The position numbers were made by a program, and so were the translations under genes. A DNA stretch of 64,000 nt from an uncultured bacterium (lineage in GTDB: Bacteria > Babelota > Babeliae > Babelales > Vermiphilaceae), in the NCBI GenBank assembly GCA_963702025.1, contig OY969699.1, positions 128,001 through 192,000 on the forward strand, given 5' to 3'. The notes under the pieces were generated by a model. The model did no database searches and was not told the DNA's origin. It was given only the letters and a program-made list of their open reading frames with translations. Shown piece after piece: positions 33,608 through 63,754 of the stretch (positions are counted from its first letter, which is position 1; each line of letters starts with the position of its first letter).

Positions 33608-33652
33608 GAAGTTGAAAAAGAAAATCACTAAAAAAAGAAGAGTTCAATATAT

Positions 33653-35980: not shown

Positions 35981-36275
35981 ACGTATTTTTTTATCCCAAA
36001 AGGCCTTGTTAACAAGGCCTTTTCTCTGAAAAGCATACCTAGGAGACGATTATTTCAATCTGAATTAAAAAAATGCAAAGTCATAAGAATTGCAATTAAT
36101 ATAAAACCGCTTATAATGAAGTTAAATGATTACTTTTAACGCTTCAGTTTTAAATGCATACCAAATCTATATATAATTACACCAACAGTTATTTATCTAG
36201 TTTCGGGAGGACTCCAGCGAGAACAAACTCATTTTTGTTGTTTTTTTTTAATTCTTTTATATAAGCGAATTTATA

Positions 36276-43440: not shown

Positions 43441-44121
43441 ATGTCACTTTTTAACAAGATCCTTATTGCTAGCTTTGCAGTACTTTGTGCCGTTGGTTCT
43501 CAATCAATTTCTGCCATGGAAACTGATAAAAATGCTCTTGCATTTTCGCATTTAAAACCTTTTTACCAAGAATTAGACAGTTTTAGGAAAGATGAAACAA
43601 AAGTAACATTTTCTATTCATACAATTAATGAAACAATTAATCAAACCGAAATCCTCTATGGTGCCTATCTGCACGATGCACACAATACTAAACTTGGATC
43701 ATGCAAAATAAAATATAACCCCCAAACCCGCGTAGCATTTTGCTATAGTTTATGGGTACATCAAAACGATCGGCAACAAGGGATCGGAACATATCTGGCT
43801 GCGATGGTTGCAAAATTCTTAGCATCATATGATTGCCGGGGCATAGCATGGCATGTTGAGCCACATGATTTGAGAGATGGGGAACAAAAAGATCAGATGA
43901 TGTCTAAATTAATCAAATTCTATGAAGCACTCGGCGCAACATATTACAAAGATTTAAATTGTATGTTTTTTGATATACAACAACAAACAGATATAAAAGC
44001 GCTCATTCGAGCAGTGACCCTTGCAAATCACGTTGCGCAATCCGATCAACCGGATACCGTTATGCCGGAAAAAGCATACGGCAGAATTAATATAGTGTTA
44101 AATCACTTACAAAATAGATAA
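43441..44121 (+). CDS. Secreted GNAT-like acetyltransferase with two C-terminal PTS2-like motifs
   Basis: Signal peptide ending ISA-ME; LWVHQNDRQQGIGTYL (acetyl-CoA motif A), LIKFYEALGA (motif B); RAVTLANHV and RINIVLNHL. Confidence 0.75.
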   Translation: MSLFNKILIASFAVLCAVGSQSISAMETDKNALAFSHLKPFYQELDSFRKDETKVTFSIHTINETINQTEILYGAYLHDAHNTKLGSCKIKYNPQTRVAFCYSLWVHQNDRQQGIGTYLAAMVAKFLASYDCRGIAWHVEPHDLRDGEQKDQMMSKLIKFYEALGATYYKDLNCMFFDIQQQTDIKALIRAVTLANHVAQSDQPDTVMPEKAYGRINIVLNHLQNR

Positions 44122-44139
44122 GGAATTTTGGAGGTTATT

Positions 44140-44789
44140 ATGAAATTAAGAATGATAATTGTAACGCTAACTCTCATTGTCACACAATCCATTTTTGGCA
44201 TGGCGCAGCACCAAGCGCTTAATCGCGCACGCCAGATTGTTGGCCATCTGCAGCAACCAAGGCAGCCAAGTGCACCAGGATATCAGCCACATGAAAAGCT
44301 CATGTTGCCCATGGCATGTGCCGGTAGTATAGAAGGTTGTGTGGAGGGTTGGATACATGAAAAAGTTATCTCCGATAAAAAAACACAACAGCCAATTGCC
44401 TGTATTCACCTTTTTGTTGAAGATGATAATTCATCATCTACCAAATTTACCGCTTCACTTTCAATGCCAACTCAGCATAACATTGGGTCAGCAATGGTTA
44501 CTTATCATAAAAAAAATAACACTTTAGAGCTGGAACTTTTAACGGTAAATACTGATTTTCGTGGCAAAGGTTATGGTAGCATGCTCCTTGCCTCTGTTAA
44601 AAATCTTGCTCGCCATCTTGGCTGTAAAGAAATCACCGGCACCGCAGCTCCGTATGCACTTAAAGAAGGTGAAACAAAAAGCAAAATCTTCCAAAATTGA
44701 TCAAATTATACCGTTCATTCGGCGCCAAACTAGATGGCAAAGCTACTGCGATCGAAGCGCCGATGAAGATCAGTCTGCAAAAGAAATGA
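44140..44789 (+). pseudogene. Secreted GNAT-like acetyltransferase with N-terminal PTS2-like motif, interrupted by a 1-nt frameshift near 44680
   Basis: LTVNTDFRGKGYGSML motif A; motif B (LPKLIKLYRSFGAKL...) continues in another frame to TGA 44787-89, aligning with MSKLIKFYEALGA of the neighbour; could also be a sequencing error. Confidence 0.7.
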
Positions 44790-44905
44790 AGGCTAGTGCC
44801 AAGCCGCTTCATTTGAGCAGCAGCTTAAAAATTGATTGATCCCCAAAAAAGCGGTACTATTTTTGATAATAAATTACAAAAACTGACGCTTTTAAGGGAT
44901 ACTCA

Positions 44906-47509
44906 ATGACATCCGATCAAATACGCCAAAAGTTTTTCGATTTTTTCATCAAACGGGGCCACACTCAGGTTGCCAGCTCGTCATTGATTCCCGCCCAAGA
45001 TCCAAGTTTACTTTTTACCAATGCAGGGATGAATCAGTTCAAAGATGTCTTCTTGGGTAAAGAAAAACGAAGCTATACCCGCGCAGTGTCCATTCAAAAA
45101 TGTGTGCGGGCCGGCGGTAAACACAATGATTTGGAAAACGTTGGCTTTACCAAGCGACATCTAACCTTTTTTGAAATGATGGGCAACTTCTCATTTGGTG
45201 ATTATTTTAAGAAAGATGCCATCCATTTTGCCTGGGATTTTCTGGCCAAAGAGATGAATCTTCCGACTGAAAAATTACATGCCACTGTCTATAAAACTGA
45301 CGATGAAGCATACGATATTTGGCATAAAGAAATTGGTATACCTGCTGATCGTATGCATCGCCTTGGTGAAAAAGACAACTTTTGGCAGATGGGTGAAACC
45401 GGCCCTTGTGGCCCTTGCACCGAAATTCACATTGATCGCGGCCCTGAATTTGGCTGCAAAGAGATTAAAAACTGTGGCCCGGCATGCGATTGCGATCGCT
45501 TCTTGGAAATCTGGAACTTAGTGTTCATGCAATTTGATCGCCAACCGGATGGCGCGGATAAGCCGCTCAAACAGACCGGCGTTGATACGGGTATGGGCAT
45601 TGAACGCTTGTGTGTTGTTGTCCAAAATAAAGACTCGGTATATCAAACTGATCTTTTTACACCAATTATTGAGCGCATAGAAAAACTCTCGGGTAAAAAA
45701 TATGCTGAACAAAATGATCAAACAAAAGCAGCATTTCATGTTCTTGCCGATCACATTCGTTCATCAACCATGATTATTGCCGATGGCGGCGCTCCCTCGA
45801 ATGAAGGGCGCGGCTATGTCTTGCGTAAAATAATCCGCCGCGCAGCATTGTTTGCTCAAAAATTAACCTCCGAGAATATTTTCCCTGAACTTTCACGGGT
45901 AGTTATTGAACAATTGGGGGCTATTTATCCTGAGCTCAATACCAATGCAACGCTCATTTATAAAATTTTAGACAGTGAAATTAGTAAATTCTCGGCAAAC
46001 TTAACTCGGGGGCAAGCTATCTTAGAAAAATATTTCCAAGATCATCCAAAGGAAAAAATTGTCACCGGATCACAAGCATTTAAATTATATGACACCTATG
46101 GCTTCCCTATCGAACTTATTCGCGTAATGGCGCAAGAAAAGGGCTTTACCGTTGATGATGCGGGCTTTGAAATAGAAATGGCAAAACAACAAGAACAATC
46201 AGGTAAAAAAACAACCATTGATGAACTCAATTATCTGCTGCCCGATTCAGTAACCACAGAATTTACCGGTTATCAGGAACTGCAAACAAGTTCACCCATC
46301 ACTCATTTAATTTATGAAGATAAGCTCGTTGATAGTGTGCCGGCCGGCTCGCTATGTTGGGTGATCACACAAAAATCCCCTTATTTTATCGTTGGGGGCG
46401 GGCAAGTGCCCGATCAAGGAACAATCACCATTCAGGGAGTTGAAACTCCTCTCCTGCAAGTCCGCTATATTAATAATGCAATAGGCATACATATTAAAAC
46501 GCCCGTTGCCCTAAAAGTGGGCCAAACAATTACGAGCTCGGTTGATCCGGTATGGCGCACCAATGCGATGAAAAATCATACCGCAACCCACTTACTGCAA
46601 TCAGCGTTAATTACGTTATTTGGCAAACAGATCAAACAATCCGGTTCGTTGGTACATCCTGACTATTTGCGCTTTGATTTTACCTATCATGAAAATTTAA
46701 GCGCAGCAGATTTGCAAAAAGTAGAAGATTTAGTAAATGAAAAAATAAGACAAAATATTCCGCTTAAGATAGAATATCTGCCGCTCACTGAAGCGGTAAA
46801 GCGCGGCGCCTTGGCTTTCTTTGGCGATAAATATAATCCTGAAAAAGTACGTTTGGTGGATGTTCCCGGCTTCTCTCAAGAGCTATGCGGCGGCACTCAC
46901 GTGCGCGCAACAGGAGACATTGGAGTCTTTAAAATTACTGATATGAGTGCTCTCTCAGCAGGACATCGCCGCATTACGGCAATAACGGGGCCACGCGCGC
47001 TTGAACTGTTTCAAGAAACATTTGCCATCGTAAAAAGCCTTAGTCAGGATTTTAAGGTTCAAAAAGAACAGGTTTTAGATGCTGTAGCAAAAGAAAAAGA
47101 GACCTTCAAAAAAATGCAAATGCATCTTAAACACCTCAAAAAACAATTATTTGCATTACAAATACCAGCATGGCTTGAGCAGGTTCAAACAATTAATGGA
47201 TTACCTTTCCTTTATCAATCAATAACTGATGCATCCAATGAAGAAATAAAAGAGATTGCGCAACAATTGAGTCAAAAAAAATCAGGGCTCTATTTCTTGT
47301 CCAGCTGCACGGATGATAAAACTATTTTTGTCGCCCAGCTGAGTCCTACAATTAAAAATATTGATATCAAAAAACTTGCTCATCACTTACAAGAAAAGTA
47401 TGGCATCCGCGGGGGCGGATCGAGCACCTTTTTGCAAGGTGGGGCCAATCAACTGCCACAATCGTTAAAAGAGGATTTAAAAGAATGGTTAGAAAAAATA
47501 TCTGCCTAG
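44906..47509 (+). CDS. alaS: Alanine--tRNA ligase
   Basis: LLFTNAGMNQFK, RHLTFFEMMGNFSFGDYFK, DTGMGIER, HTATHLL, ELCGGTHV, RGGG. Confidence 0.99.
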   Translation: MTSDQIRQKFFDFFIKRGHTQVASSSLIPAQDPSLLFTNAGMNQFKDVFLGKEKRSYTRAVSIQKCVRAGGKHNDLENVGFTKRHLTFFEMMGNFSFGDYFKKDAIHFAWDFLAKEMNLPTEKLHATVYKTDDEAYDIWHKEIGIPADRMHRLGEKDNFWQMGETGPCGPCTEIHIDRGPEFGCKEIKNCGPACDCDRFLEIWNLVFMQFDRQPDGADKPLKQTGVDTGMGIERLCVVVQNKDSVYQTDLFTPIIERIEKLSGKKYAEQNDQTKAAFHVLADHIRSSTMIIADGGAPSNEGRGYVLRKIIRRAALFAQKLTSENIFPELSRVVIEQLGAIYPELNTNATLIYKILDSEISKFSANLTRGQAILEKYFQDHPKEKIVTGSQAFKLYDTYGFPIELIRVMAQEKGFTVDDAGFEIEMAKQQEQSGKKTTIDELNYLLPDSVTTEFTGYQELQTSSPITHLIYEDKLVDSVPAGSLCWVITQKSPYFIVGGGQVPDQGTITIQGVETPLLQVRYINNAIGIHIKTPVALKVGQTITSSVDPVWRTNAMKNHTATHLLQSALITLFGKQIKQSGSLVHPDYLRFDFTYHENLSAADLQKVEDLVNEKIRQNIPLKIEYLPLTEAVKRGALAFFGDKYNPEKVRLVDVPGFSQELCGGTHVRATGDIGVFKITDMSALSAGHRRITAITGPRALELFQETFAIVKSLSQDFKVQKEQVLDAVAKEKETFKKMQMHLKHLKKQLFALQIPAWLEQVQTINGLPFLYQSITDASNEEIKEIAQQLSQKKSGLYFLSSCTDDKTIFVAQLSPTIKNIDIKKLAHHLQEKYGIRGGGSSTFLQGGANQLPQSLKEDLKEWLEKISA

Positions 47510-47763
47510 GACTCATATTAACAACTGCTATAGCCTCAACAACTTTTAGCATGGTTATTGAACGCGAATTGCGTCAACTAAACCGAAAGCGACAAACGGA
47601 AGAAATTGAAAGGAAAATTGCTTTGCAAAATAGAAAAACAACTAACTTTTCAAGCAAAAGAAATCCGTCCAGAAATTGCCTTGCATTATTAGATTGGTTC
47701 ATCTCACATTACACCTACGCAAATATACAGCCCAACGTTCATCCGGTCATGAATGAATGGTAA
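47485..47763 (+). CDS. Small hypothetical exported protein
   Basis: Signal-like N-terminus ending TFS-M; overlaps alaS stop. Confidence 0.45.
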   Translation: MVRKNICLGLILTTAIASTTFSMVIERELRQLNRKRQTEEIERKIALQNRKTTNFSSKRNPSRNCLALLDWFISHYTYANIQPNVHPVMNEW

Positions 47764-47768
47764 CCGTC

Positions 47769-48194
47769 ATGCGCTATATTTTTCTTATATCTGCTCTTTT
47801 TTTTGTGCCGCTATCAGGAATGGAAAATCCTGAGCCTATCTTAAATGAAGCGCTCGAAATTCAAGAATTCACATGGCCGGTACGCAAACAAATAGTATTG
47901 CACACCCAAGACATTAATACATTAATGGACAAATGTGCCGGCAAAAAAAGAGAACCACCTCATACCGCCTGTTGTGATAAACATTCAACAATCTATGCCA
48001 ATGCAAAAGAATATTTACGGGGTATTAAACATCTTTTAGACAGAATAATCCTTGAATGCGATAAAATACGTGCACATCATGGTAACTATCAGGAACATTT
48101 TGAACGCGCACGGCTCTTGTTATGGCAATCGTATGAAAAAGCAGAAAAATATGCCGAAATACAGGATACTTTAAAAGAAAAATTCTCATCATAG
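47769..48194 (+). CDS. Secreted helical protein (GME family; distant paralog of the next two)
   Basis: MRYIFLISALFFVPLSG-MEN; QEFTWPVRK resembles QNFVCPMRK. Confidence 0.6.
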   Translation: MRYIFLISALFFVPLSGMENPEPILNEALEIQEFTWPVRKQIVLHTQDINTLMDKCAGKKREPPHTACCDKHSTIYANAKEYLRGIKHLLDRIILECDKIRAHHGNYQEHFERARLLLWQSYEKAEKYAEIQDTLKEKFSS

Positions 48195-48261
48195 AGCATT
48201 TTTCTTATTGGTCTCACTATTTTTTATGATTTGCAAGAGTGCTGGAGTGTTCATTTCAAGA

Positions 48262-48843
48262 TCAAAGTTTTTTTTGTCCCTCATTAAACTTTTGTTCCTC
48301 AAGGCGGGCATTTATCTCAAGCATTAACGCAATCCGCGCGACCATAAGATCTCGATTACTTTTTTGCAGCTCTTCAATTTGCCGAGAAGATGATTGTGTT
48401 AGTAGTGTTAGATCGGAAATCCCTTGCTGATCTATCGCAAACTCATTAAGAGATTTTTTCATAAATTTTATTAGATTATTACGACACGCCGTTACAGATT
48501 CTAAATCTTTAATCTCGTTCTCAAGCACCGTTTCAAGATCTTTAGATGGTTCTGTATCACATGCTTCAGCTGCCATTGCATGATTAAGTAGACTCATATT
48601 ATATAGATTGGCTAATGTCCCCATGTCTGAACAAACTCTTTCAAAGATCTGGTCTTCACGTTGCTGTATTTGTGGGTTTTTTAGTCCGACAATACGAATT
48701 TTTCTCATTGGACATACAAAATTCTGGGCAGACTCCATAACAATATGAGCAATCTCAGTTTGAGAGTCCTTATCTTTTTCTCCTTCCATGGCATATGCGA
48801 GAGATACTGTTAAAGCAAGCGTTAAGCTCATTAATTTCTTCAT
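48262..48843 (-). CDS. Secreted coiled-coil protein (AME family)
   Basis: MKKLMSLTLALTVSLAYA-MEG; paralog of 49000..49626. Confidence 0.65.
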   Translation of the reverse strand: MKKLMSLTLALTVSLAYAMEGEKDKDSQTEIAHIVMESAQNFVCPMRKIRIVGLKNPQIQQREDQIFERVCSDMGTLANLYNMSLLNHAMAAEACDTEPSKDLETVLENEIKDLESVTACRNNLIKFMKKSLNEFAIDQQGISDLTLLTQSSSRQIEELQKSNRDLMVARIALMLEINARLEEQKFNEGQKKL

Positions 48844-48999
48844 ACAAGCCCCCTTCTGAAATATTTATAAATTATTTTAATTATGATTACTAAATTTATG
48901 AAAAAAAATCAGATTATTTTTTCGATCATTGTAATAGCTTGATCGATTTTTTCAGTAAGTAAAATAGAGGACGACCGATGCCAAATCTTCGAATGATCT

Positions 49000-49626
49000 T
49001 TACGACATCGCTTCTTTTTTGTTTTGTACCTGCTCATCAAATTCGTCAAGAATTGCATGCTCTTCTAGCGTTAAAGCAAGAAGCAGTGTTAGTCGGTTAT
49101 GAATATTTAATCTTTGGTCTTGGATCAATTTGGGAAGTTTACTCAAAGCAGACGACTGAAGTTCTTTACCGAAAAGATCTCCTTCCTCAGGATACAGACT
49201 CTTCATTGTGGCTTCTACAGATATCATACCCTGAAAAATATCCTTTTCAATTTCTTCAGCGTGTTTTGTAAGGATGGTTTTAATATCTTTTGACTTATTA
49301 ATATTATGTTCTGCGATAGCATTCTCATAAGTCATGGTTGCCATGGCAAATAGATTTGTATATAATTTTTTTTCAGTTAAATTTTGCAAAATCTTTTCTT
49401 TTCTTTTTTTTATTTCAGGATCCATTCGATTAAATTCAAAATTAGTTACCGGACATTCGAGTGTTTGCCCGTAGATATGTCCTTGAGAAGTTTTAGTAGA
49501 TTTATTGTCTACTTCAAATTCCCCTTTAGTCGCTTCGATTTTTTTAGAAATCTCGGGATTCTTTTCTTCCATGGCGCAAAGATGAGGGATAATCACTACC
49601 AATCCTATAGTCATTAATTTTTTCAT
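49000..49626 (-). CDS. Secreted coiled-coil protein (AME family)
   Basis: MKKLMTIGLVVIIPHLCA-MEE; CPV...PEIKKRKEKIL...NLFAMA aligns with CPM...PQIQQREDQIF...NLYNMS. Confidence 0.65.
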   Translation of the reverse strand: MKKLMTIGLVVIIPHLCAMEEKNPEISKKIEATKGEFEVDNKSTKTSQGHIYGQTLECPVTNFEFNRMDPEIKKRKEKILQNLTEKKLYTNLFAMATMTYENAIAEHNINKSKDIKTILTKHAEEIEKDIFQGMISVEATMKSLYPEEGDLFGKELQSSALSKLPKLIQDQRLNIHNRLTLLLALTLEEHAILDEFDEQVQNKKEAMS

Positions 49627-49697
49627 AATGGATCCTTTTTAAAACAATATTAAAAAAATTTTGATTAAGATTTACCAAAATTATAAAAAAAAATATA

Positions 49698-50219
49698 TCA
49701 AATTGTTTGCTCAATAAGTGTAACAACCTGATTAATTTTCTCATCCAGCATAGTGGAGTCTTCATTAAATTTTTCAAGCACGTAATTTGGAACATCTTCT
49801 TTTGCCAAAGGACGACCGATGCCAAATCTTAGACGTGCAAATTGATCACCACAAGCAGAAATAATAGATTTCAGACCATTATGACCACGAGCACTGCCGC
49901 CAACGCGCATTTTAACAACGCCAAAAGGCTGCTCCAATTCATCATGCACCACTAAAATATTTTCTGGCTTAATCCCCTGCTTGAGTAATGCGGGAATAAC
50001 TTTGCCCGAATCATTCATGAAAGTTTGGGGCTTTATCAAGAGTATTTGTTTGCCATTAAACGGCATTATTGCCACTTCCATATTACTTTTGGTCTGCCAA
50101 GAAAGATGATGGCGATTGGCAAGGGTATCCAAAATACGAAAGCCAATATTGTGACGGGTATAATAATAACGAGGGCCGGGATTCCCCAGCCCTATAATTA
50201 CTTTAATATCTAAATTCAT
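49698..50219 (-). CDS. pth: Peptidyl-tRNA hydrolase
   Basis: IIGLGNPG..Y..TRHNIGF, KPQTFMNDSG, VVHDEL, GHNGLKSI, RLRFGIGRP. Confidence 0.97.
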   Translation of the reverse strand: MNLDIKVIIGLGNPGPRYYYTRHNIGFRILDTLANRHHLSWQTKSNMEVAIMPFNGKQILLIKPQTFMNDSGKVIPALLKQGIKPENILVVHDELEQPFGVVKMRVGGSARGHNGLKSIISACGDQFARLRFGIGRPLAKEDVPNYVLEKFNEDSTMLDEKINQVVTLIEQTI

Positions 50220-50848
50220 TATGCAGCTTTTGTTGCCGGTTTAGGGGCCGCTACAGCTTTGCTTTTTGCCAGCGTTGTTTTTTGTTCATGCTTTTGATTA
50301 GCGAGTTTCATAACATCAGCAGTTGCATCGAGTCCTGCTTTTTTATAAATAACTCTGCCGCTGCTTTCATCAAGAACCATATAGAGATTTTTCTCTTTTG
50401 CCCAATCAGAAACCACTTGCACAAGATCAGCATACAGAGGTTGCATAAGACGCATCTCTTCCATTTGCAAATCGTTGCGGCCATCTTGCACAATTCGTTG
50501 CAACTTAGCGTTCAACTCACCTTTTTTATATTCAAGATCTCTAATTTTCTTTTCTGAATCCGCTTGTGCTTGGGAACTAGCCACCGCTTTTTGTTTCATA
50601 ATATCGGCGCGAATTCTTTGTTGTTCATCTTCAATATTTTTTAACTCTGCCATAATTTGCTTGGCTTCTGCTTCTAAAGAAGCGGACAATTTTTGCAACT
50701 GACCAATAGCTTCTTGGCCAAGTTTAGATTCCATCACCAAGCTTTGAAGGTTAACAGTACGTACCTTATCTTCCAAATTAAAATCTCCGCGTAATGCTGT
50801 CATGCTGCACAGAACAGTTAATGACAGTAACATATTTTTTAGTTTCAT
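50219..50848 (-). CDS. skp: OmpH/Skp periplasmic chaperone
   Basis: Signal peptide, KVRTVNLQ strand, long coiled coil, AKEKNLYMVLD...DATADV C-terminus. Confidence 0.75.
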   Translation of the reverse strand: MKLKNMLLSLTVLCSMTALRGDFNLEDKVRTVNLQSLVMESKLGQEAIGQLQKLSASLEAEAKQIMAELKNIEDEQQRIRADIMKQKAVASSQAQADSEKKIRDLEYKKGELNAKLQRIVQDGRNDLQMEEMRLMQPLYADLVQVVSDWAKEKNLYMVLDESSGRVIYKKAGLDATADVMKLANQKHEQKTTLAKSKAVAAPKPATKAA

Positions 50849-50925
50849 ATGTGCCTCTTGAAAAAAAAATGGTTTTTAGGATGACTTTTATGCTTACTTT
50901 CACTCTACCCAAAGCTATAAAATAG

Positions 50926-54040: not shown

Positions 54041-54313
54041 ATGAAAAAAATTATCATGTTACTGTCACTTACAATAATTACTACCTCTTTTATGCATGCC
54101 ATTTGTAAAAAACCGGATAAAGGCCATGTTGACCCAAATATTGTCCACTGCCCATATACCCAAGAAGATATAAATCGTTGTTATTGCAAAAAAGGAACTT
54201 GCTATACTGACTTTCAAAAAAGAAATGAATGTTTTTTTTGCAGCTGCCCTAAAAGCGAACATACCACCAAAGAAATCCCAAAAAAACAAAAGAAAAGAAG
54301 ACGCATATATTAA
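54041..54313 (+). CDS. Small secreted Cys/His-rich protein with basic C-terminal tail
   Basis: Start MKKIIMLL at 54041; 8 Cys including CFFCSCPKSEH; ends PKKQKKRRRIY. Confidence 0.65.
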   Translation: MKKIIMLLSLTIITTSFMHAICKKPDKGHVDPNIVHCPYTQEDINRCYCKKGTCYTDFQKRNECFFCSCPKSEHTTKEIPKKQKKRRRIY

Positions 54314-54331
54314 TATTTTATAATGCAATGC

Positions 54332-54481
54332 AGTCCGTCTACGCTTTCACTTCGTTGGTATCAATTACTAAAGAAGCTTCTGCTTCGCCGGACAGCCTAC
54401 GCTTAGTTCTACCAATATCAAATTATATCTATATCAATCCTTTAAAAAAATGGCCGTGCCAGCCGAAGCCTTGGCGTAGGC
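54332..54481. repeat. REP-like cluster abutting the tmRNA 3' end
   Basis: gcctacgccaaggcttcggc (on -) immediately after tmRNA, same as 63898-63917; tccgtctacgct...gcttcgccggac resembles 36762-36789 reversed. Confidence 0.65.
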
Positions 54482-54838
54482 TGGAGGCGATGGGAGTTGA
54501 ACCCATGTCCGTTCTGTATCCTACTAAAAGCCACTACATGCTTAGCCTCTGTTTATACTCTTCTATCATCCCAGAGACAGGGTTTAATAAAAGAGGCCCG
54601 GTGCGTGATACCTCTCAAGCTACTCACTATGCAAAGCCTTACTTGAGTGTTCTATCTTGTTGATACGAGTTAGCGCAACTGATAGACACGTTATGCTAAC
54701 AAGCGCTCTTTGCTTACGCTTGAGCGGCAACTACAGGAGTTGCATTTCTTGTTTTGACCAATTGTTTAACGAGCACTTAGTCAACGCTCGGCATGCTCTT
54801 TTGGTATTCAACAGCTCGTCGAAACCAAATACGCCCCC
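54482..54838 (-). ncRNA. ssrA: tmRNA (SsrA), predicted tag (A)ATPVVAAQA
   Basis: 5' GGGGGCGTATTTGGTTTCGAC; 3' T-arm GGACATGGGTTCAACTCCCATCGCCTCCA with G3.U70 acceptor stem; tag ORF 54743-54714 after AAAT-GCA. Confidence 0.93.
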
Positions 54839-55043
54839 AAAATTTCAAAGAATCGCTATTAAATTATACTATAACAGTAATATTTCCCGTTTGTCAAAAT
54901 TGCGACTAAGAAGGACCCTTTTTTGTGCAAAAGATTTATTAAATCAATGTTATTTTGCTTTTTTTAAATTTGTGATTGCTGTTTTTACAAAAATTCACGT
55001 AATATGATAATAAGATCATCAAATTTCATTAAAAAGTGATGGC

Positions 55044-56186
55044 ATGTTTAACAGAATTTTAAAATTACCTCTTAATGGCACCAGCAGTATTTTCTTATTT
55101 GGCCCCCGAGGAACCGGCAAAACATCATGGATCAAAGCCCATATGCCTGATGCCCTTTATCTTGACCTTCTGGATTTTTCATTATACAGTTCACTTTCAG
55201 CAGCTCCCGATCGGTTAGAAACCCTTATTCCAAAAGGGTTTGATGGCTGGATTGTTCTTGATGAAGTGCAACGGGTGCCTGAACTACTCAACGAGGTTCA
55301 TCGCTTAATTGAAAGCAAAAAACTCCGATTTTTACTCACCGGCTCAAGTGCCCGCAGTCTCAAACGAAAAGGGGTGAACCTTCTTGCGGGTCGAGCATTA
55401 CGATATACCATGCATCCGTTAACGGTACAAGAAATTGGTTCTCATTTTGATTTGGCACATGCGGTGCAATTTGGCATGTTACCAACCGCCGTTACCCATG
55501 AAGATCCCAAAAAATATTTAGAAAGCTATGTGCAAACCTATTTGCGCGAAGAGGTGTTGCAAGAGGGCATTTTGCGCAATGTGGGAACTTTTGCACGATT
55601 TTTAGAAATAGCCAGTTTTTCTCAGGGTAATTTAGTTAATTATTCAGAAATTGGGCGCGAGCTGGGACTTAATCGTCTGAGCGTTGCGAACAATTTTGAA
55701 ATACTTGATGACCTCTTGCTTTCCATCAGAATCGATCCATTCACGCAGCGCGCCAAACGCAAAATGGTTGCTCATCAAAAATTTTATTTCTTTGATGCCG
55801 GGGTTTATAGGGCAATACGCCCCATGGGCCCTCTTGACTCGCCCGAAGAATCTGACGGCGCTGCGCTCGAAACACTCTTTTTGCAGTCGCTTTGCGCGAT
55901 TAATGATTATTATGAGCTGGGATACACTATCTATTTTTGGCGCACCGCAAGCGGCACAGAAGTGGATTTTATTTTGTATGGGCCGCGAGGCATTCATGCT
56001 TTTGAAATCAAACGCTCAAGCACGGTACAAAATAAAGCGCTCAAGGGATTAAAGGATTTCCATGAAGATTACCCGGAAGCAAAATTACACTTTGTATTTG
56101 GCGGTAAAAATAAAGAATATCATGGCGACATTCAAGCCATTCCGTTTGAACAAGCACTAAGAGAATTGCCACAATTGCTTGGATAG
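55044..56186 (+). CDS. AAA+ ATPase, AAA_14/DUF4143 family
   Basis: GPRGTGKT, VLDEVQ, KFYFFDAG, EVDF...AFEIK. Confidence 0.9.
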   Translation: MFNRILKLPLNGTSSIFLFGPRGTGKTSWIKAHMPDALYLDLLDFSLYSSLSAAPDRLETLIPKGFDGWIVLDEVQRVPELLNEVHRLIESKKLRFLLTGSSARSLKRKGVNLLAGRALRYTMHPLTVQEIGSHFDLAHAVQFGMLPTAVTHEDPKKYLESYVQTYLREEVLQEGILRNVGTFARFLEIASFSQGNLVNYSEIGRELGLNRLSVANNFEILDDLLLSIRIDPFTQRAKRKMVAHQKFYFFDAGVYRAIRPMGPLDSPEESDGAALETLFLQSLCAINDYYELGYTIYFWRTASGTEVDFILYGPRGIHAFEIKRSSTVQNKALKGLKDFHEDYPEAKLHFVFGGKNKEYHGDIQAIPFEQALRELPQLLG

Positions 56187-56202
56187 AGATAGTTTTACCG
56201 GA

Positions 56203-56505
56203 TTATTTTGATTTTGAAATCGAACTCAAGCTCATATCAATCTTTTTGCCAATCACCGCAGCAGCTTTATTTAAAGTAAGCAGTGTTACTGAGTAATTTT
56301 TTGGATCCATGAGCCTTTTTAATCCTGATCTGCTTGTCCCTAATTGTTTTGCCATCTCATCTTGAGTAAGGTGTTTTTTCTTCATGTGTTCTTTTAAGTT
56401 GCGCGCTATAACAGTTTTTACAGCGGCAGCATTAACTTCTTCTAAAATTCCTGCTTCCTCAAGAAAACTTTCGAAGCTTGATCCGATATGTTTGCTTTTT
56501 TTCAT
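56203..56505 (-). CDS. XRE/HTH protein, antitoxin-like
   Basis: KHIGSSFESFLEE N-terminus and LTQDEMAKQLGTSRS...VTLLTL HTH. Confidence 0.85.
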   Translation of the reverse strand: MKKSKHIGSSFESFLEEAGILEEVNAAAVKTVIARNLKEHMKKKHLTQDEMAKQLGTSRSGLKRLMDPKNYSVTLLTLNKAAAVIGKKIDMSLSSISKSK

Positions 56506-56520
56506 ATAATCCTATGAAGA

Positions 56521-56829
56521 TTAATTATGCGCAGGATTAACTGAAAGATTTAAATTTAAGGCATGTATAATTGCTTTGATGCTTGACCATCGCGGATTAC
56601 CTTTTAAAGAAAGAATTCTATAAAGATTTACTCGATCGAGTTTAGTCATATCTGCTAGATCAGAGATATCTCCACCTCGAGCATCAAGAACATCTTTTAA
56701 AGCAAGTAAAAAAACGCGATCATCTTCATCCTTAAGAGCCGCATTCAAATAAGCAAGTGCTTCCTTTGGATCTTGAAGTTTTTCGAATAAATATTCTTTA
56801 AAATCTCTGTGTTGTTTTTTTTGTGCCAT
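56521..56829 (-). CDS. Putative addiction-module antidote (HI1420-like HTH)
   Basis: LQDPKEALAYLNAAL...FLLALKDV..ARGG...LYRILS.KGNP. Confidence 0.88.
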   Translation of the reverse strand: MAQKKQHRDFKEYLFEKLQDPKEALAYLNAALKDEDDRVFLLALKDVLDARGGDISDLADMTKLDRVNLYRILSLKGNPRWSSIKAIIHALNLNLSVNPAHN

Positions 56830-56830
56830 A

Positions 56831-57160
56831 TTATTCCTCTTGATACGCTACCCAATATTGTTCTGCTTTTTCTATGTCTCTGCGCTGGGTTCGTTTAGTT
56901 CCCCCATTTAGAAGTATTACAATCATTAATGATTTTTTTCCATAATAAATCCGATAGCCAGGCCTTGGTCTATAACGATCTCACAAATTCCAGATTTGCT
57001 TCCCGTAACTGGTTTGCAACTTTGAAAATTACCAAGCCTCAGCCGCGCAATTCTTGCATTTATGATACTGCGATCTGTAAAATCTAGATCCTCTAATCAT
57101 TCAGCTTAAAGGCTCTTTCCCCGAGTTAGTCTTATAAGTGATTGTTTTTATCATACTCAT
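56831..57160 (-). pseudogene. Frameshifted RelE-like addiction-module killer (HI1419-like)
   Basis: Manual translation across frameshifts: MSMIKTITYKTNSGKEP / ..LEDLDFTDRSIINARIARLRLGNFQSCKPV...EIVID / PGYRIYYG...ILLNGGTKRTQRRDIEKAEQYW. Confidence 0.85.
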
Positions 57161-57502
57161 ATAGATATGGTAGCTTATAAGCAACAATATTGTAAAGGAT
57201 AAAATAAAATTTTTTCTTTTTCGCTCTTTGATCCCTCTACCGGATTTGCCGACGCCGGGTCTACAAGGACGGAAAAGCAAGCGAGCCCTGGGGAAGCTTT
57301 AGCGAAGTAGCAAGTCTCAGCTTTTTTCACCCAAAAGCCAATAATGCGCCAAGCCAATTCCCCTATTGGATTTTCCGATAGCTTAAATCTAAAAAATGAA
57401 CATATAAAGGTTTTTGGGGCATATTGCTCATTGACAAATATGCAATAATGCATATAATTAGGGTATAATATACGTCAAATATATATAAAAATGAAGGTTA
57501 TT

Positions 57503-60500
57503 ATGAAATTTTCTATAAAAATCACCGTTTTCTTGTGCCTTATAGGTTTACAGGCATACGCAAGCGAAAAGCAAAGCAGTATTGCTCTGACCAGAGCACA
57601 GCAATTAATGGGTCACATAGCCCCCTCTGTTGATATTCCGGGAAACCTAAATTCTACTGCGCACCAGAGAATTGACGGGATTTTGGGCCATATTGCGCCT
57701 GAATTGCAAGAATATCCTTTTGACGTTGAATTAAATCAATGTGCCGGCATATCCCAAGATGCGATAGATATTTTTCAAAAAAGGCTCATTGAAAAAAAAG
57801 AAATAAAACTTCCTTTAAATACGATTATTGAATGGAACTTATCAGGAAATCACCAGTTTTTTATAGATTCGCTCAACGGTAAAAGTTCTGAAATCAACCC
57901 AACCCGCACCGCAATGGCTAAAAAATGGGTTCGCAATGCCTCTACTCGTATATTTAATGATCTCAACCGATCCTTCTTGGAGATTGTGGTTAATGCTTTT
58001 GACGCAATGTTACCCGAAGATCAATCGGTGGGCAAATTCGGCATGGGATTTTTCTCATTATTAAGCTTCTTGGATCTCATTGAAACGGATGGCGCAATTA
58101 TAGCCATAGATACCACTGCTTTGGATAAAAATGGAAAACCCTTCACCTTCACGATGCACATTGAAAAAAATACCGCTCAAGATATTTATGTAACTTTCAA
58201 ATTACAAGAAACACCGAACACACAAACAGGCTCTAAAATTGCTATTTTACCTAAAAATACAGCAAAATCCTTTTCCCCCGGAACGATAGAAAATATATAT
58301 CGCTACTTACATTTTTTACAGTTTTATGAAAATGGAACAATTAATCTGACCATTGAAAGAAATGGAACATTACAAAACGAAAAGTTATGCGCAGGAACCA
58401 ACACTACTGCTATTGCTCAAGTTGCACTAAGTTCACAAGAACTATCAGCCACCGATAAAGGAAGTGGTATCACCGTTCCTGTTGCCTTAACAAAACTGCT
58501 TGTTCCCAGCTCATCATCAAAAGGAAATATTAAGATAAAATCTTTAGAAGATGCAAAGAAAGAGGCACTCAATAACATCTCAAAGCCACAGCTGGTAAAC
58601 TTTAAAGGGAAAACGAAAGAAAATCTCAACTACTCACACTTCTTAATTAAAATTAATGGTGTTGTGGTAATTGCCATTCCTAATAAGCAAAAAGAAATAG
58701 AAAATCAGATTGTTGATTCAACCGGGCACATAAAAGATCTATTAATTTCCATGCCGCAAATTACGCAGTTAACCTTGGCACGTAATGAAATTTATATAAA
58801 CCCTGATGGCAAGAGCTTTGAAGAAACGTATTTAAAAAAGGTGATAGAAAACGCCATTAATACTATTTTATTAATTAATGATAGCACCGATCAAAAAACA
58901 TTGGTTGAAAATCAACTTCTCATCTCTGCATTATATAATGCCTTTGATTATTGGGAAAAACAGACGGCGGCCGAACACGTTAATGGGCTCTTTACCAGTT
59001 ATATAAAAGAAGTTCTTGCAAAATTATTAGAAAGCAAAAAAAATATTTTTCCGGTGCACCCGTTATTCTATTCGATGACAAAATCAATTTGTGATACGTT
59101 TTTAGGAACTACCAATCAACAGTGTACTTTGTTACCAATAGATGCCTCTATTGTTTCTTATAGTTATTCAAAATTAGAAAACTTTTTGAAAGCACAATTT
59201 TTAACCAAAGCATCAAAAATAGAAAATCCGACACATAAAAGTTTATTCTTAAAAGGTATTAATCAAGAGTTAATCGCGGGTAAAATTATCTTATTTGTAC
59301 CCGAAGATGTATTAAAAAATAAAACGGGAAAACCAACTATAACTGATGCCGGTTTACGCCAAACGTTATTTATACCAATTTCATTTTTACAACAAAGTAC
59401 AAACGAAGATGCTTTAACTAATAAAATTATTAACTATTTCACTCAAACAATCCTCAGTTCTTATAACAAGAATCCCGAAAATTCACATCAAAAAGTCTTT
59501 TTAATTAATAAAGATAAAGCGGGTGATTTTTACTGTAGCAGGCTCTATGATTTACCGAATGATAAAATTACCTTTTTAACTCAAAATCAATCCCAGCTCG
59601 CTGATGAATTTTTAAACACACATAAAGAACTAATAAAGAATTTGCAATTACCCGACGAAAATAGAAACTCTATACTCAGGTTTATTGAATGTTATGGCAA
59701 AGATTGTAAAGAAGCATTTCATCGGCATTCAGAGGATAATGAGAAGTTTGAATATAATATTGATATTTTTCATCCAGCCATAGCTACCGTTGACCATCTT
59801 GTTGTACAATTTAGGAAATTTTTTACCGCATTTAAAAATATACACAATGGACAAAGAGACGCACTATTAGAAGGCCCGTTTCGAGATGATGAATTTCCTC
59901 ATGTATTTTGTAAGATCTTAGAAAACACCATTTTTTTTGATGAAGCAACGAATACATTTCACAAGTTTGATAATGCAAAAGCAAAAAGACTATTTATTAA
60001 CGAATTCAGAACAAACCAAGCTTTCAAAGAACTAGCTCAGCTCAATGCTCCTGAATATTTTTCCAGAAGATTTGAGGCAGAGGCTAAACCTTTGTTATTG
60101 AAACTGATAAAAGACAATAATTTATTAGGTGAAAAAATTAATTCGTTGAATCTGGTGAATTTTATATTTTATAAGCTGCTTCAGAATAGTGAATTAAGGA
60201 CTCGTGACTATATACTTGAATATAATCATAATATCGAAATATTCCCTAAATTAGATAAAAACCTGATTGCTTTAGAAAATCTATTTCTATCATTAGTATC
60301 AAGAAAAAATTATGAAAACTTTTATTGGCGTAATTATGTAGAACCGATTTTATCTAAAAATATTAGCGTGCAATCGAAGGGGTTAAATAAAGAACTGGTG
60401 CGCAAAGCGATTACAGAAAAATTAGAAGAAATTCCGGTCAGTCTCGAATATCAAAATACATTAACAGCGAGTATCGAGAATTTAAATATTCCTTCCACGT

Positions 60501-63500
60501 TAGTAGACTCATTGGTTGCGTATCTTAATATAAGAGATGAATCAAAATTGACCGAAAGTAATAAAAAATCTTACTTCGAATTCAGAAATTCGATGCTTGG
60601 GATGTATAAGCATTATTTTAAAATTAATGATAATGATATTGCCTATAATTATGGCTATGGCGATCGCGTTAAAGCCATTCATCCGACTAATGATGTCACC
60701 GGTAATGAATTAATAACATTGCTGCAAAAAATTGATCCTAACCCGACTTTATACAATAAGCTTTTAGAATTCCAGATTACTGATTTCATTTTCCAAACTA
60801 ATAGCATGGTAAAATCCCAGGATCTCTTAAATAAAAAATTTTACGTGCCATCGCTGTTCGCAAATACTCCTGTCTCAATACTTGCTTATCTTTTAAAAAG
60901 CGGTGTGCATGAAAATATCATAAAAATTATTCTTCAAGATTCACGCAATAGCGCTGAGTTAATGTACATTTCATATTTAATAGCTTTATTGCATTCTAAT
61001 CCTACTATTAAACTGTTGTTACGGAATGAAAATAAAGAAATAGAAAACAATTTAAAAGTTATTATTAAAACATTGATCCAAGAAAAAGTTGATCAGGATA
61101 GAATTATCAAAATTTATAATGAAAATAGATCAAAAAATTCAATAAAAGAACGACTAGAATCTTTCTCTACTGAACCTATCGCTAAAAACATTCAAAGCTA
61201 TTTAGCCGATTTAGCACAAAATTCAGTCAACTTTGCGCGCAAACAATCGTTTGTCGCATCTAAATTAAAATTACCAGATACAAAAAAATTCACTCTCAAA
61301 CAATTGATTAATGCCCACTGCACCGGCACCGGACTGAGTGCATTGTTACCCATTAATGATCCAAACATTAAAAGAACGCCAGCGCAATTAAACAGCATTA
61401 TTGAACATATAAACAAACAAGAGAATGAATTAGAATTTGGCAAAATCGAACAATCGGTTGAAGCAGGGAGTGAAAAGAGCCCGGTATGCGGCACTATAAC
61501 TGAATGTTTACAAAATTCGATTGACTCGGTAAAACAGTTTATTACATCAATGCAACAGAATAAAACTGAAATAAGAGAATCTTTAAAAGCACGATATAGC
61601 ACCACTTCTAAGGTGCTCGACGCAGTATCTTCAATAGAATTTTCTTTAGCAACGATACCTTCCAAAATCGATAATAATAACCATCTCTCTTTAACAATAA
61701 GGGACCATATCGGTTTTGCAACCTTAAAATCGTTAATTACCGATTTTCTCTTGCCGGATTACAGCAACAAAAGACCTGATTTAGGAAACGTTGGCGATAT
61801 GGGCAATGGTTCATTTAAAATGTATCAACAGGCAGAATTTGTTTCGATTATTACCCGGCCCGTTGAGGACCCAACAAAAGTGTATATGTTAACCATTGTT
61901 CCTTTAAGAAATAAATTAACCAATCGCGTTGAGGATTTATCAATTACTCTCCGTGATATTACCGCTCAAGTTCCTAAAACTCTTTTTGGCACAACGATCC
62001 GCATAGTGTTCTTACCTGAACCAAGTAATAGAAATGATATTAATTTATTGTATGTTAAAGATTTCTTAACCAATACCGTTGGCGCCACCGATATCACATT
62101 GCCCCATGGGAAAAAAATAACTATTTATCTGAAGAATGGAAAAGAAGCAATCTTATTAAATAAACCCACAAAAACTGTTTTCCAAACAGTGTACCCGGAA
62201 ACCGGCAAAGTTAAATTTAAAGTAAATCAGCGCGAGAGTGATTACTTGCAAAGCTTTATAACTACCGGAGGCGTTCCCTTTAGAACCTTGCCTTCTTTAT
62301 GTAAACAGATGAATTTATTGCCAACTAATTTTATTACCGATTTTAGTTTCGGCTACCTTGTGGATTTGGATATAAACAGCTATGAACCGGTTCAAAGTAG
62401 AACATTGCTACAAATGAACAAAGAAAATCATATCCAATTAAAACAGGCGCTCCTTGATGCCTATTTTATCATTGGCTTGCACAAAGGCATCAATAATTCA
62501 AATTATTTTGACAAAGTATTTACCCATTTTGGCAGTTCGTGCCATTCATTAGAACAAGTTAGCTTAAGCTCTCAACTCAATGAGACATGCAATGAGATGA
62601 TAAACAACTTTTTAAATTCCAACTCAGTTACCACGATGGAACCGGAACTCTTCTTTACCTATTACAAACCTTCATGGGCGGACAAGAGTTTTTATCACCA
62701 TATCAAAGAGGTGTATGATACGATTCTGGACAGCGTGAATGCGCAGATAAAAGAAAATAAGAGGCTTATTGAAGAGTGGCACACCAAAAATAAAAATGAC
62801 CTCACCACCATCGCTACCAGCGAAGATAAAGCATTGGCAGAACAATTAAAGGAAAAATTAGCAAATGAGTTTAAGCCATTGAGAGAAAAATGTGCCCACG
62901 CAATTGAGACTATTTTTAACAATTGGAAATTCCAATTTAAAACATCAAAAAATGAAACTGCAAATCTTTTTGAAACAAACGTTGTAATACCATGGGTGTT
63001 TAAAAAGGCTGAGGGAATTAGTACCGGCTTTAAAAATGCACTAATGGAAATACCGACAATAAACAAAGATGGGGGAAAAAATAAATCTTCTTCTGCTGAA
63101 TCCATATATTCTCATAATTTAAACATAGTCTCGTTATTTAACGACTTAATGAAGCATAGTCTTTTGAGTTATTGTAATTTATTTTTAAACAAAATAGGCG
63201 TAACAGATATACAAAACAAACTAAGTAATGCCTCTTTTTATTACAATCCCTACCAATTAACAAGTGGATTTTACGTCCCAAAAACTAAAGAATTAAAAAT
63301 CAATTTAGCATTTGTCTCAGTCGCAGATTATTTTGAGATGTTGATTAGAATATTAGAAAACGATGCTACCGGGATCAGGTTAAATAAAACCTATAATGAG
63401 TTATTTGCAAATAATGCCGGCAATGAGGCAACGTTGACCCATGAGCTTGAGCATGCACGGCGCGAGGATAGCCACAATGGCCCCCACGGCCCTGGATTGG

Positions 63501-63754
63501 ATGCTGAGGGAAATATGTCTAATTTTAGACAATGCGCTAATAGTTTTAGTAGAAAAGCCCAAGAGGCCGGGTTACTGCAAGACTGGATAGCGGATATTCG
63601 GAATTTCTACAATAGTAAAGTTGATGCCCGTAACCGCGATTCTGAAAAGGAAAGTATGAAAAAATACGCTTTAAGCAACGTGAGAAGAGTTGAAGCTGAA
63701 AATAAAATATCTCTCATGCAAGAATTGGGATATTTATTCGGGGCTAAGTTGTAA
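57503..63754 (+). CDS. Giant secreted protein with two GHKL (HSP90/sacsin-like) ATPase modules and a C-terminal HEXXH motif; PTS2-like motifs at N-terminus and PTS1 AKL at C-terminus
   Basis: Signal peptide ending AYA; EIVVNAFDA..GKFGMGFFS; ECLQNSIDS..IRDHIGF..GDMGNGSF; LTHELEH; ends FGAKL; probable start MKFSIK at 57503. Confidence 0.8.
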   Translation: MKFSIKITVFLCLIGLQAYASEKQSSIALTRAQQLMGHIAPSVDIPGNLNSTAHQRIDGILGHIAPELQEYPFDVELNQCAGISQDAIDIFQKRLIEKKEIKLPLNTIIEWNLSGNHQFFIDSLNGKSSEINPTRTAMAKKWVRNASTRIFNDLNRSFLEIVVNAFDAMLPEDQSVGKFGMGFFSLLSFLDLIETDGAIIAIDTTALDKNGKPFTFTMHIEKNTAQDIYVTFKLQETPNTQTGSKIAILPKNTAKSFSPGTIENIYRYLHFLQFYENGTINLTIERNGTLQNEKLCAGTNTTAIAQVALSSQELSATDKGSGITVPVALTKLLVPSSSSKGNIKIKSLEDAKKEALNNISKPQLVNFKGKTKENLNYSHFLIKINGVVVIAIPNKQKEIENQIVDSTGHIKDLLISMPQITQLTLARNEIYINPDGKSFEETYLKKVIENAINTILLINDSTDQKTLVENQLLISALYNAFDYWEKQTAAEHVNGLFTSYIKEVLAKLLESKKNIFPVHPLFYSMTKSICDTFLGTTNQQCTLLPIDASIVSYSYSKLENFLKAQFLTKASKIENPTHKSLFLKGINQELIAGKIILFVPEDVLKNKTGKPTITDAGLRQTLFIPISFLQQSTNEDALTNKIINYFTQTILSSYNKNPENSHQKVFLINKDKAGDFYCSRLYDLPNDKITFLTQNQSQLADEFLNTHKELIKNLQLPDENRNSILRFIECYGKDCKEAFHRHSEDNEKFEYNIDIFHPAIATVDHLVVQFRKFFTAFKNIHNGQRDALLEGPFRDDEFPHVFCKILENTIFFDEATNTFHKFDNAKAKRLFINEFRTNQAFKELAQLNAPEYFSRRFEAEAKPLLLKLIKDNNLLGEKINSLNLVNFIFYKLLQNSELRTRDYILEYNHNIEIFPKLDKNLIALENLFLSLVSRKNYENFYWRNYVEPILSKNISVQSKGLNKELVRKAITEKLEEIPVSLEYQNTLTASIENLNIPSTLVDSLVAYLNIRDESKLTESNKKSYFEFRNSMLGMYKHYFKINDNDIAYNYGYGDRVKAIHPTNDVTGNELITLLQKIDPNPTLYNKLLEFQITDFIFQTNSMVKSQDLLNKKFYVPSLFANTPVSILAYLLKSGVHENIIKIILQDSRNSAELMYISYLIALLHSNPTIKLLLRNENKEIENNLKVIIKTLIQEKVDQDRIIKIYNENRSKNSIKERLESFSTEPIAKNIQSYLADLAQNSVNFARKQSFVASKLKLPDTKKFTLKQLINAHCTGTGLSALLPINDPNIKRTPAQLNSIIEHINKQENELEFGKIEQSVEAGSEKSPVCGTITECLQNSIDSVKQFITSMQQNKTEIRESLKARYSTTSKVLDAVSSIEFSLATIPSKIDNNNHLSLTIRDHIGFATLKSLITDFLLPDYSNKRPDLGNVGDMGNGSFKMYQQAEFVSIITRPVEDPTKVYMLTIVPLRNKLTNRVEDLSITLRDITAQVPKTLFGTTIRIVFLPEPSNRNDINLLYVKDFLTNTVGATDITLPHGKKITIYLKNGKEAILLNKPTKTVFQTVYPETGKVKFKVNQRESDYLQSFITTGGVPFRTLPSLCKQMNLLPTNFITDFSFGYLVDLDINSYEPVQSRTLLQMNKENHIQLKQALLDAYFIIGLHKGINNSNYFDKVFTHFGSSCHSLEQVSLSSQLNETCNEMINNFLNSNSVTTMEPELFFTYYKPSWADKSFYHHIKEVYDTILDSVNAQIKENKRLIEEWHTKNKNDLTTIATSEDKALAEQLKEKLANEFKPLREKCAHAIETIFNNWKFQFKTSKNETANLFETNVVIPWVFKKAEGISTGFKNALMEIPTINKDGGKNKSSSAESIYSHNLNIVSLFNDLMKHSLLSYCNLFLNKIGVTDIQNKLSNASFYYNPYQLTSGFYVPKTKELKINLAFVSVADYFEMLIRILENDATGIRLNKTYNELFANNAGNEATLTHELEHARREDSHNGPHGPGLDAEGNMSNFRQCANSFSRKAQEAGLLQDWIADIRNFYNSKVDARNRDSEKESMKKYALSNVRRVEAENKISLMQELGYLFGAKL

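Follow-up and report, generated by a model that had tools for sequence, protein, structure and literature searches.

This study focused on three genes for predicted secreted proteins in a 64,000-nucleotide stretch of DNA (the window; positions 128,001 to 192,000 of contig OY969699.1, assembly GCA_963702025.1) from an uncultured bacterium of the phylum Babelota. The best reading of the sequences is that some Babeliales lineages practise a patchy, modular mimicry of both peroxisomal targeting signals, type 1 (PTS1) at the C-terminus and type 2 (PTS2) near the N-terminus, on effectors exported by the general secretory (Sec) pathway. We put the probability that these tags deliver their cargo into host peroxisomes at roughly 0.72. 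That they engage the receptors PEX5 and PEX7 in some way is highly probable, and the odds are somewhat in favour of several Babeliales lineages running a peroxisome-directed effector programme, with portable PTS2/PTS1 tags on dozens of unrelated secreted proteins.

The genome that carries the window (G000) is a single contig of 1.596 Mb with 39% GC. Listings of sequencing runs gave no RNA source, and the DNA runs had small shares only. Leaders of the n/h/c type were called throughout with our own hydrophobicity heuristic, and in this genome 808 of the 1666 called open reading frames (ORFs) had a leader resembling a signal peptide and lacked other membrane segments, close to the 44% reported for Chromulinavorax (PMC6561590). 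The C-termini of these proteins are unusual. In unselected sequence from three genomes (G000, G013 and G019; 1406 signal-peptide and 1233 other proteins), 19 of the 1406 ended in [SA][KR]L, against 2.8, 3.2 and 1.9 expected under three null models, as did 2 of the 1233 others (difference, p = 6e-4). The 19 ends were SKL (5), AKL (6), SRL (6) and ARL (2), mostly on unrelated proteins in singleton clusters. Neighbouring ends of signal-peptide proteins in the same pool were not enriched: T[KR]L occurred once, [^SA][KR]L 13 times (16-19 expected) and [SA][^KR]L 13 times (14-17 expected), and neither [SA][KR][VIFM] nor reversed tripeptides gave an excess. The ends might instead be ligands of another host reader, such as a class I PDZ domain or another TPR protein, with the N-terminal motif an unrelated amphipathic host-binding element. 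SKL and SRL do also fit what we take to be the class I pattern; AKL and ARL (8 of the 19) do not, however, and PDZ class I ends in the pool were depleted rather than enriched (18 against 30-33 expected). These two points ruled out the PDZ class I reading and make any such host reader extremely improbable.

In G000, where 1.7 [SA][KR]L ends were expected on 807 signal-peptide proteins and 1.3 on 630 others, the counts were 8 and 2, and the excess persisted without the giant protein described below (p = 0.002-0.009). In 620 kb of G013, taken without its giant gene, they were found on 5 of 258 signal-peptide proteins (0.56 expected) and none of 255 others; a further sample (4 of 147) gave a total of 9 of 405. 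No excess was seen in the 513 signal-peptide proteins sampled from Babelota that lack the PTS2-like motif: 0/176 in G007, 0/84 in G006, 0/95 in G005 and 1/158 in loci flanking alaS, pooled 1/513 (p = 0.02), or 2 if one counts a G006 protein whose leader was missed by the heuristic. None of the 140 signal-peptide proteins in alaS flanks from outside the phylum had such an end; AKL or SKL closes five AlaS orthologs in these flanks, a chance family end. Among 35 distinct tagged ends, partly paralogs, K or R stood at position -4 in 71% (15% in the comparison) and a hydrophobic residue at -5 in 74% (against 31%); the giant protein of the window has G at -4. Residues upstream of the tripeptide contribute to PTS1 recognition (PMC9133605).

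The second, PTS2-like signal was seen in the three window genes, two for GNAT acetyltransferases and one for the giant protein, whose features are as follows.

43441-44121, forward strand: GNAT-1 (alternative start 43429), with a leader, a GNAT acetyltransferase domain and a C-terminal tail bearing two PTS2-like copies
43441-43515, forward strand: predicted Sec signal peptide of GNAT-1 (heuristic)
44008-44034, forward strand: RAVTLANHV of GNAT-1, PTS2-like, the weakest copy (translation)
44083-44109, forward strand: RINIVLNHL of GNAT-1, PTS2-like, 3 residues before the stop, an exact fit to the Petriv consensus
44140-44700, forward strand: GNAT-2 (alternative start 44128), with a signal peptide, an N-terminal PTS2-like motif and a GNAT domain
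44140-44199, forward strand: predicted Sec signal peptide of GNAT-2 (heuristic)
44224-44250, forward strand: RARQIVGHL of GNAT-2, PTS2-like, about 9 residues past the predicted cleavage site (translation)
57503-63754, forward strand: giant protein of 2083 or 2087 amino acids (alternative start 57491), with a signal peptide, two PTS2-like copies, two GHKL-like sets, HExxH and a PTS1
57503-57562, forward strand: predicted Sec signal peptide of the giant protein (heuristic)
57593-57619, forward strand: RAQQLMGHI, PTS2-like (RAx5HI type), about 11 residues past the predicted cleavage (translation)
57668-57694, forward strand: RIDGILGHI, PTS2-like (RIx5HI type), 25 residues after the first copy (translation)
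57977-58057, forward strand: first GHKL-like motif set, LEIVVNAFD ... GKFGMGFFS, invariant in alignment A1
61496-61819, forward strand: second GHKL-like motif set, ITECLQNSID ... GDMGNGSFK, invariant in alignment A1
63440-63454, forward strand: HELEH, an HExxH zinc-peptidase-like motif, invariant in alignment A1
63743-63751, forward strand: C-terminal PTS1 tripeptide AKL (protein end GAKL-stop, 63743-63754)

The original prediction had described five such nonapeptides on three secreted proteins, lying in appendages outside the catalytic domains. Translation returned all five and the heuristic gave all three proteins Sec-type leaders; because the Pfam GNAT domain occupies residues 70-169 of GNAT-1 and 96-178 of GNAT-2, the GNAT-1 motifs (residues 194 and 219) and the GNAT-2 motif (residue 33) do lie outside it. 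The GNAT-2 ORF is apparently frameshifted near 44670-44700 and hence shortened; a 212-amino-acid allele from another assembly (P0055, 84% identical) retains RARQIVGHL. GNAT-1 has sister alleles (about 92% identity; four of seven cluster members) that read RAGILANQV and RINTLLNHL, so that position 8 of the former has changed from H to Q and free positions differ, with the anchors constant. Searches of the protein collection with both GNATs returned near-identical relatives only. Upstream of alaS in G003 lie a GNAT homolog with three N-terminal copies (21% identity to GNAT-2) and another with one terminal copy that aligns to RINIVLNHL (25% to GNAT-1). A third GNAT of G000 (1457084) has RINAITNHL behind its leader; it is bordered by two related ORFs that end in RARL (L019:132-1139 and 2164-2508; G000 1456031-1458407), on which no leader was detected and which may be 5'-truncated.

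When matches to R-[LIVQAM]-x2-[LIVM]-x2-H-[LIV] in G000 were split by position, residues 16-75 of signal-peptide proteins contained 9 (0.8 expected), their middles 0 (2.7 expected), their last 40 residues 3 (0.5 expected) and the N-termini of 630 other proteins 1 (0.7 expected), so that the PTS2-like excess becomes visible only once position and signal peptide are considered. Taken alone, G000 is suggestive, because three of the nine N-terminal matches belong to a glycosyltransferase-like motif and three are those of the original prediction, whose own pattern, derived from those very matches, occurred 9 times genome-wide against 3.5 ± 2.0 in shuffled sequence. Of further candidates, RLxElydHV, on four paralogs (G000 498-503 kb) that we take to be glycosyltransferase-like, and the C-terminal RLGxILxHV of two NADAR proteins were discarded as fold motifs, and RISKLKGHI at G000 636177 was doubtful.

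A profile of seven leader-plus-motif segments led to loci in G002, G003, G011 and G019. A first motif model (A2) matched mostly signal peptides (72/261 genomes) and was replaced by a refined profile (A3, E<=0.05), which matched 13 of the 261 genomes in the phylum comparison set: six with 4-20 matches each (G000, G002, G003, G011, G013 and G019, which represent one family and four genera), and a further seven in which a single weak match was seen, so that multi-copy use was confined to 6/261. Five of seven congeners were A3-negative, and this patchiness inside the genus would fit a host-linked trait. Recurrence in relatives, which the original prediction would lead one to expect, was found in other genera, on unrelated cargo, and with PTS1 and PTS2 on the same proteins. 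At the level of sequence the original interpretation is supported, and it reaches beyond the window.

Across 32 aligned instances the motif had R at position 1, A/L/I/V/M at 2, I/L at 5, H/Q at 8 and L/V/I/M at 9, positions 1, 5, 8 and 9 being imposed by the selection pattern, and beyond these A at -2 (27), G at 7 (19) and P at 11 (19). With one anchor freed at a time in 1530 leader-proximal regions, a tabulation that takes in model-selected loci and paralogs, position 1 was R in 31 of 48, position 2 L/A/V/I/M in 31 of 32, position 5 I/L in 31 of 34, position 8 H in 16 and Q in 15 of 33, and position 9 L/V/I/M in 31 of 34, which meets the core PTS2 pattern (R1, hydrophobic 2/5/9, H/Q at 8); the same scan of negative genomes gave 1 match in 529 regions. 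In GNAT-2, the giant protein and most relatives the motif stands after the predicted cleavage site, near the N-terminus and outside a folded domain; the GNAT-1 copies are C-terminal. Tandem copies, up to three per protein, are 24-32 residues apart. A recent mobile cassette is not indicated, because six G000 copies are unlike at the DNA level (27-44%).

The two signals also tended to occur together. At G019 loci picked by the PTS2 model alone, 13 of 43 signal-peptide proteins ended in SKL or AKL, with 0.1 expected, and G011 loci showed the same pattern; in G013 a tandem ankyrin array has AQRLQRIMGH[IL] right behind its leader. Raw counts were 15 proteins with both signals, 28 with PTS2 only, 23 with PTS1 only and 1431 with neither. 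In G125, of another family, a signal-peptide protein homologous to the ART-like carriers described below ends in SKL and has no N-terminal motif (L087:318-1484), and PTS1 use may extend beyond the family.

Four proteins of the giant family bear both signals: the window protein, P0003 (motif beginning with H; end AKL), P0004 (RATRIIDQI and RIQNILGHI; end AKL) and a G013 protein from another genus (38% identity; RLNKILGHV behind the leader, end ISKL). Neither was present in the G019 homolog or in P0005-P0019, and the motif was missing from 15 of 15 other strong homologs. It is therefore not a structural helix or part of the fold, an objection that the original prediction had itself raised. In a FastTree reconstruction of 15 rows (P0011-13, P0015, P0019 and P0020-52 left out), the tagged G013 protein paired with the untagged G019 one, and two changes affected both signals together. 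The search for homologs gave 7 of 261 phylum genomes and 52 database proteins; a search for related loci seeded with the giant protein returned nothing. Its motif sets, which we presume to be GHKL, gave no HATPase_c or SACS match in Pfam and the protein no match to PDB sequences; against HATPase_c, HATPase_c_3 and SACS, 6 of 18 homologs scanned had weak matches (one above the cut-off), and two homologs had weak SprT-like/DUF6782 matches. The distant homologs P0017-P0052 have no signal peptides; by sequence impression some are chlamydial-looking (with hydrophobic N-termini) and many giant-virus-like, and gene exchange among parasites sharing hosts is possible.

A number of observations weigh against delivery to peroxisomes as the function of these motifs. 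Enrichment in secreted proteins, which follows from the original prediction, was borne out for the PTS1-type ends as given above, whereas canonical PTS2 patterns across all G000 ORFs were not enriched (22 against 26.8 in shuffled sequence, and 4 against 4.4). The motif family does not constitute a strict-consensus PTS2: the Petriv consensus was fitted by 3 of 32 instances and 1 of 5 in the window (RINIVLNHL only, as originally noted), and the Kunze pattern, R-[LI]-x2-[LI]-x2-[HQ]-L, by 5 of 32 and 0 of 5. RIDGILGHI matches the Opperdoes pattern, three of the five window copies match none of five published patterns, and the published strict patterns, as quoted in PMC9512073, are met by 3-13 of the 32 instances. 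The strict consensus is an animal and fungal one. In GNAT-1 both copies are C-terminal, an atypical place for a PTS2; these are the least certain of all, because PMC7710942 knew of just two internal PTS2s and PMC12264594 calls an internal location unusual. The 13 tagged ends among 43 in G019 are mostly on paralogs of an ankyrin/ART-like superfamily, the unselected G019 sample was weak (2/194), and co-occurrence counted by family fell to 2 clusters of 19 (p 0.03-0.07), or about two independent families. The A3 distribution is partly circular, because the profile was trained on the six positive genomes, and elsewhere a negative means 'not found with this model'. All signal-peptide assignments come from the heuristic. 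Finally, the cargo has no recognisable peroxisomal metabolic function, and its domains lend no support to the purpose first suggested, lipid metabolism or control of reactive oxygen species.

Some of these points would suit chance matches swollen by paralog expansion and motif-guided selection: false positives such as the NADAR and glycosyltransferase-like motifs exist beside a canonical pattern without enrichment in G000, 28 of the 66 marked proteins belong to one ankyrin/ART-like cluster, and silent functional PTS1s are known to arise by chance in bacterial proteins (PMC545800). This is very unlikely to be the whole explanation, as the PTS1 excess came from sequence that had not been selected, chiefly from singleton clusters (pooled Poisson 1.6e-9), against 1/513 in motif-negative samples. 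Alternatively, a bacterial factor, such as a periplasmic chaperone, a substrate site of a type II secretion system (T2SS) or a C-terminal protease, might read both motifs, their likeness to peroxisomal signals being coincidental. The confinement of both to signal-peptide proteins agrees with this, as do the A at -2 (27/32), G at 7 and P at 11 (19/32 each), which exceed a textbook PTS2, and the failure of most instances to fit the strict consensus. Such a reader would nevertheless require that the H/Q degeneracy and the [SA][KR]L end were each coincidental, and this on the same proteins; secretins are also present in motif-negative genomes, while the motifs mark only some 1-3% of the proteins with signal peptides, and do so in 6 of 261 genomes. 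We consider it decidedly unlikely. The deviation from the strict PTS2 consensus, in turn, has eukaryotic parallels. RAx5HI occurs in Arabidopsis ACX3 and ACX6 and RIx5HI in an Arabidopsis LACS (PMC9328179), and proposed stramenopile variants include RMx5HL, RVx5HL, RIx5HM and RLx5HV, with M or V at positions 2 and 9 considered likely (PMC7710942); these plant and proposed stramenopile variants would account for much of the deviation.

If the tags do target peroxisomes, four steps can be proposed. Sec export and cleavage of the predicted leader would bare the motif at the mature N-terminus. The outer membrane would then be crossed through a T2SS-like machine or in vesicles. G000 encodes two secretins, two ATPases of PilB/GspE/PilT type and prepilin-like proteins; a T2SS-like cluster with two large secretins lies at 365535-373997 and is also present in four of four relatives checked, and from sequence and gene order we take ORFs adjoining the secretins to be GspC/L/M-like. 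Searches of G000 for the VirB4, FlhA-type and TolC families found none, and the export gate of type III secretion systems (T3SS) had no match in five of five genomes searched. Chromulinavorax is reported to release vesicles (PMC6561590). In the host cytosol, the helix R-[LAVIM]-x2-[IL]-x2-[HQ]-[LVIM]-x-P would bind PEX7 and/or [SA][KR]L would bind PEX5, a mimicry evident statistically in the sequences, and folded cargo would be imported into peroxisomes, which it might modify or exploit. The tags would be small add-on modules, often duplicated, and gained or lost independently of the cargo. Babelota are said to lead a strictly intracellular life, with a host range still undefined (PMC12172432). 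Known amoebal hosts possess PEX5 and PEX7; both are encoded by Acanthamoeba, Balamuthia and Naegleria (PMC7549135). A kinetoplastid (glycosome) host, considered on the strength of one SSL-ending paralog and one H-initial motif, was rejected as too thinly based.

The tagged cargo includes GNATs, a GH1 glycosidase, an AAA protein, ankyrin repeats, an ART-like domain, the giant GHKL/HExxH protein and NADAR-free unknowns. The ART-like domain of about 300 amino acids (L113-L119, L122, L244, L038:1605-2792) is expanded in G019 and G011 and is the main carrier of dual tags. It had no Pfam or PDB sequence match; its predicted model (pLDDT 87.9) gave a best VIA Z of 3.8 (99 aligned, root-mean-square deviation 4.3), with ART-fold chains making up the great majority of the 50 matches listed, a likeness that is weak but consistent, and Foldseek gave no match at E<=0.001. 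Rather than entering the matrix, such cargo might stay outside, with the tags binding PEX5 and PEX7 so that both receptors are sequestered, or so that peroxisomes become tethered to the bacterial cell or the vacuole in which it lives. PEX5 is bound by Salmonella SseI, which exerts its action at the membrane of the peroxisome and is not imported efficiently (PMC11811301), Legionella recruits peroxisomes through MavP and PMP70 (PMC12042894), tandem (up to three) and C-terminal copies would suit avid binding, and a cargo of 2087 residues is large. Yet SseI needs a weak variant for this, while the Babeliales ends are strong canonical PTS1s with the K/R preference at -4 described above, and the cargo consists of enzymes with diverse domains in which no membrane anchor was seen; we regard tethering or sequestration as unlikely.

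Import into peroxisomes, the reading preferred here, has partial precedents. SseI (SrfH; PMC11811301) is likewise a secreted bacterial protein that binds PEX5 by a C-terminal motif and reaches peroxisomes; it differs in being a single T3SS effector with a weak, non-canonical GKM PTS1-like end and membrane action, whereas the Babeliales set comprises many putative Sec-exported proteins with canonical SKL, AKL, SRL or ARL ends and PTS2-like motifs, often both. Colletotrichum ChEC51a and ChEC96 (PMC5942036) combine a signal peptide with a canonical PTS1 and are imported into the host peroxisome matrix, but they are two proteins with PTS1 only, from a eukaryotic pathogen that has peroxisomes of its own. 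Legionella MavP (PMC12042894) is a secreted protein by which an intracellular bacterium exploits host peroxisomes; it acts by binding PMP70, and no PTS on the effector is mentioned in the parts of that article available. In silent prokaryotic PTS1s (PMC545800), too, the C-terminus of a bacterial protein fits PTS1 and is able to bind PEX5, but these are scattered chance cases, while the Babeliales ends are concentrated on the secreted proteins of particular genomes and show linkage to a second signal. Eukaryotic PTS2 and dual-tag proteins (LACS7, ACX3/6, PMC9328179; stramenopile variants, PMC7710942) share with the Babeliales motifs R1, hydrophobic residues at 2, 5 and 9, H/Q at 8, a place near the N-terminus, the RAx5HI, RIx5HI, RVx5HL, RMx5HL, x5HV and x5HM types, and two signals on one protein; the bacterial motifs differ in standing behind a Sec leader, in tandem, sometimes at the C-terminus, and in having L at position 9 in just 12 of 32. 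The system would work as effectors that mimic PTS1 do, with PTS2, double tags and a whole repertoire in addition; the precedents found are for PTS1 only. Searches of open-licence literature, at the level of listings, brought up no account of a PTS2 in bacteria and none of Babelota proteins with peroxisomal signals, and the string 'peroxisom' is absent from the available parts of the Chromulinavorax (PMC6561590) and Babelota (PMC12172432) papers.

The original prediction treated positions 43441 to 63754 as one system. Between GNAT-1/GNAT-2 and the giant gene lie alaS, pth, a Skp/OmpH-like gene, a P-type ATPase gene (labels that we presume from the sequence) and a tmRNA gene, and because housekeeping genes separate the three tagged genes, this 20-kb span is not a single locus. 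The tmRNA gene (54482-54838, reverse strand; ARAGORN) has an unusual predicted tag peptide, and the listed ORFs that overlap it are spurious. Elsewhere in the window, five paralogous outer-membrane beta-barrel proteins, all ending in F, form an array (6326-11197). A tandem 3.8-kb duplication (13133-20701, 90% identity) comprises ribD, a gene for an outer-membrane beta-barrel and one for an unknown secreted protein; of the ribD copies, the first (16183-17019) is truncated. At 25604-35989 there are three signal-peptide GMC oxidoreductases, which carry no PTS, and two beta-barrel-like partners, with another 3.8-kb duplication (84% identity); GMC oxidoreductases can produce H2O2. A DDE_3 transposase fragment, presumably of IS630 type, lies at 24766-25395.

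Little work has been done on peroxisomes as a target of bacterial pathogens, and the precedents found concern individual effectors with a PTS1. If the reading proposed here is true, it would represent the first bacterial use of PTS2 within the literature searched, and a dual-signal repertoire would mean that an entire lineage of bacteria systematically exploits peroxisomal import. The grammar of the tags (A/V/M at position 2, V/I/M at position 9) would then serve as the fingerprint of a protist host that has PEX7 and would predict which uncultured Babelota infect which hosts, and about 30 natural PTS2 variants would become available to define the specificity of protist PEX7. Some secreted orphan proteins of Babelota, which number in the hundreds, would also gain their first assignable destination.

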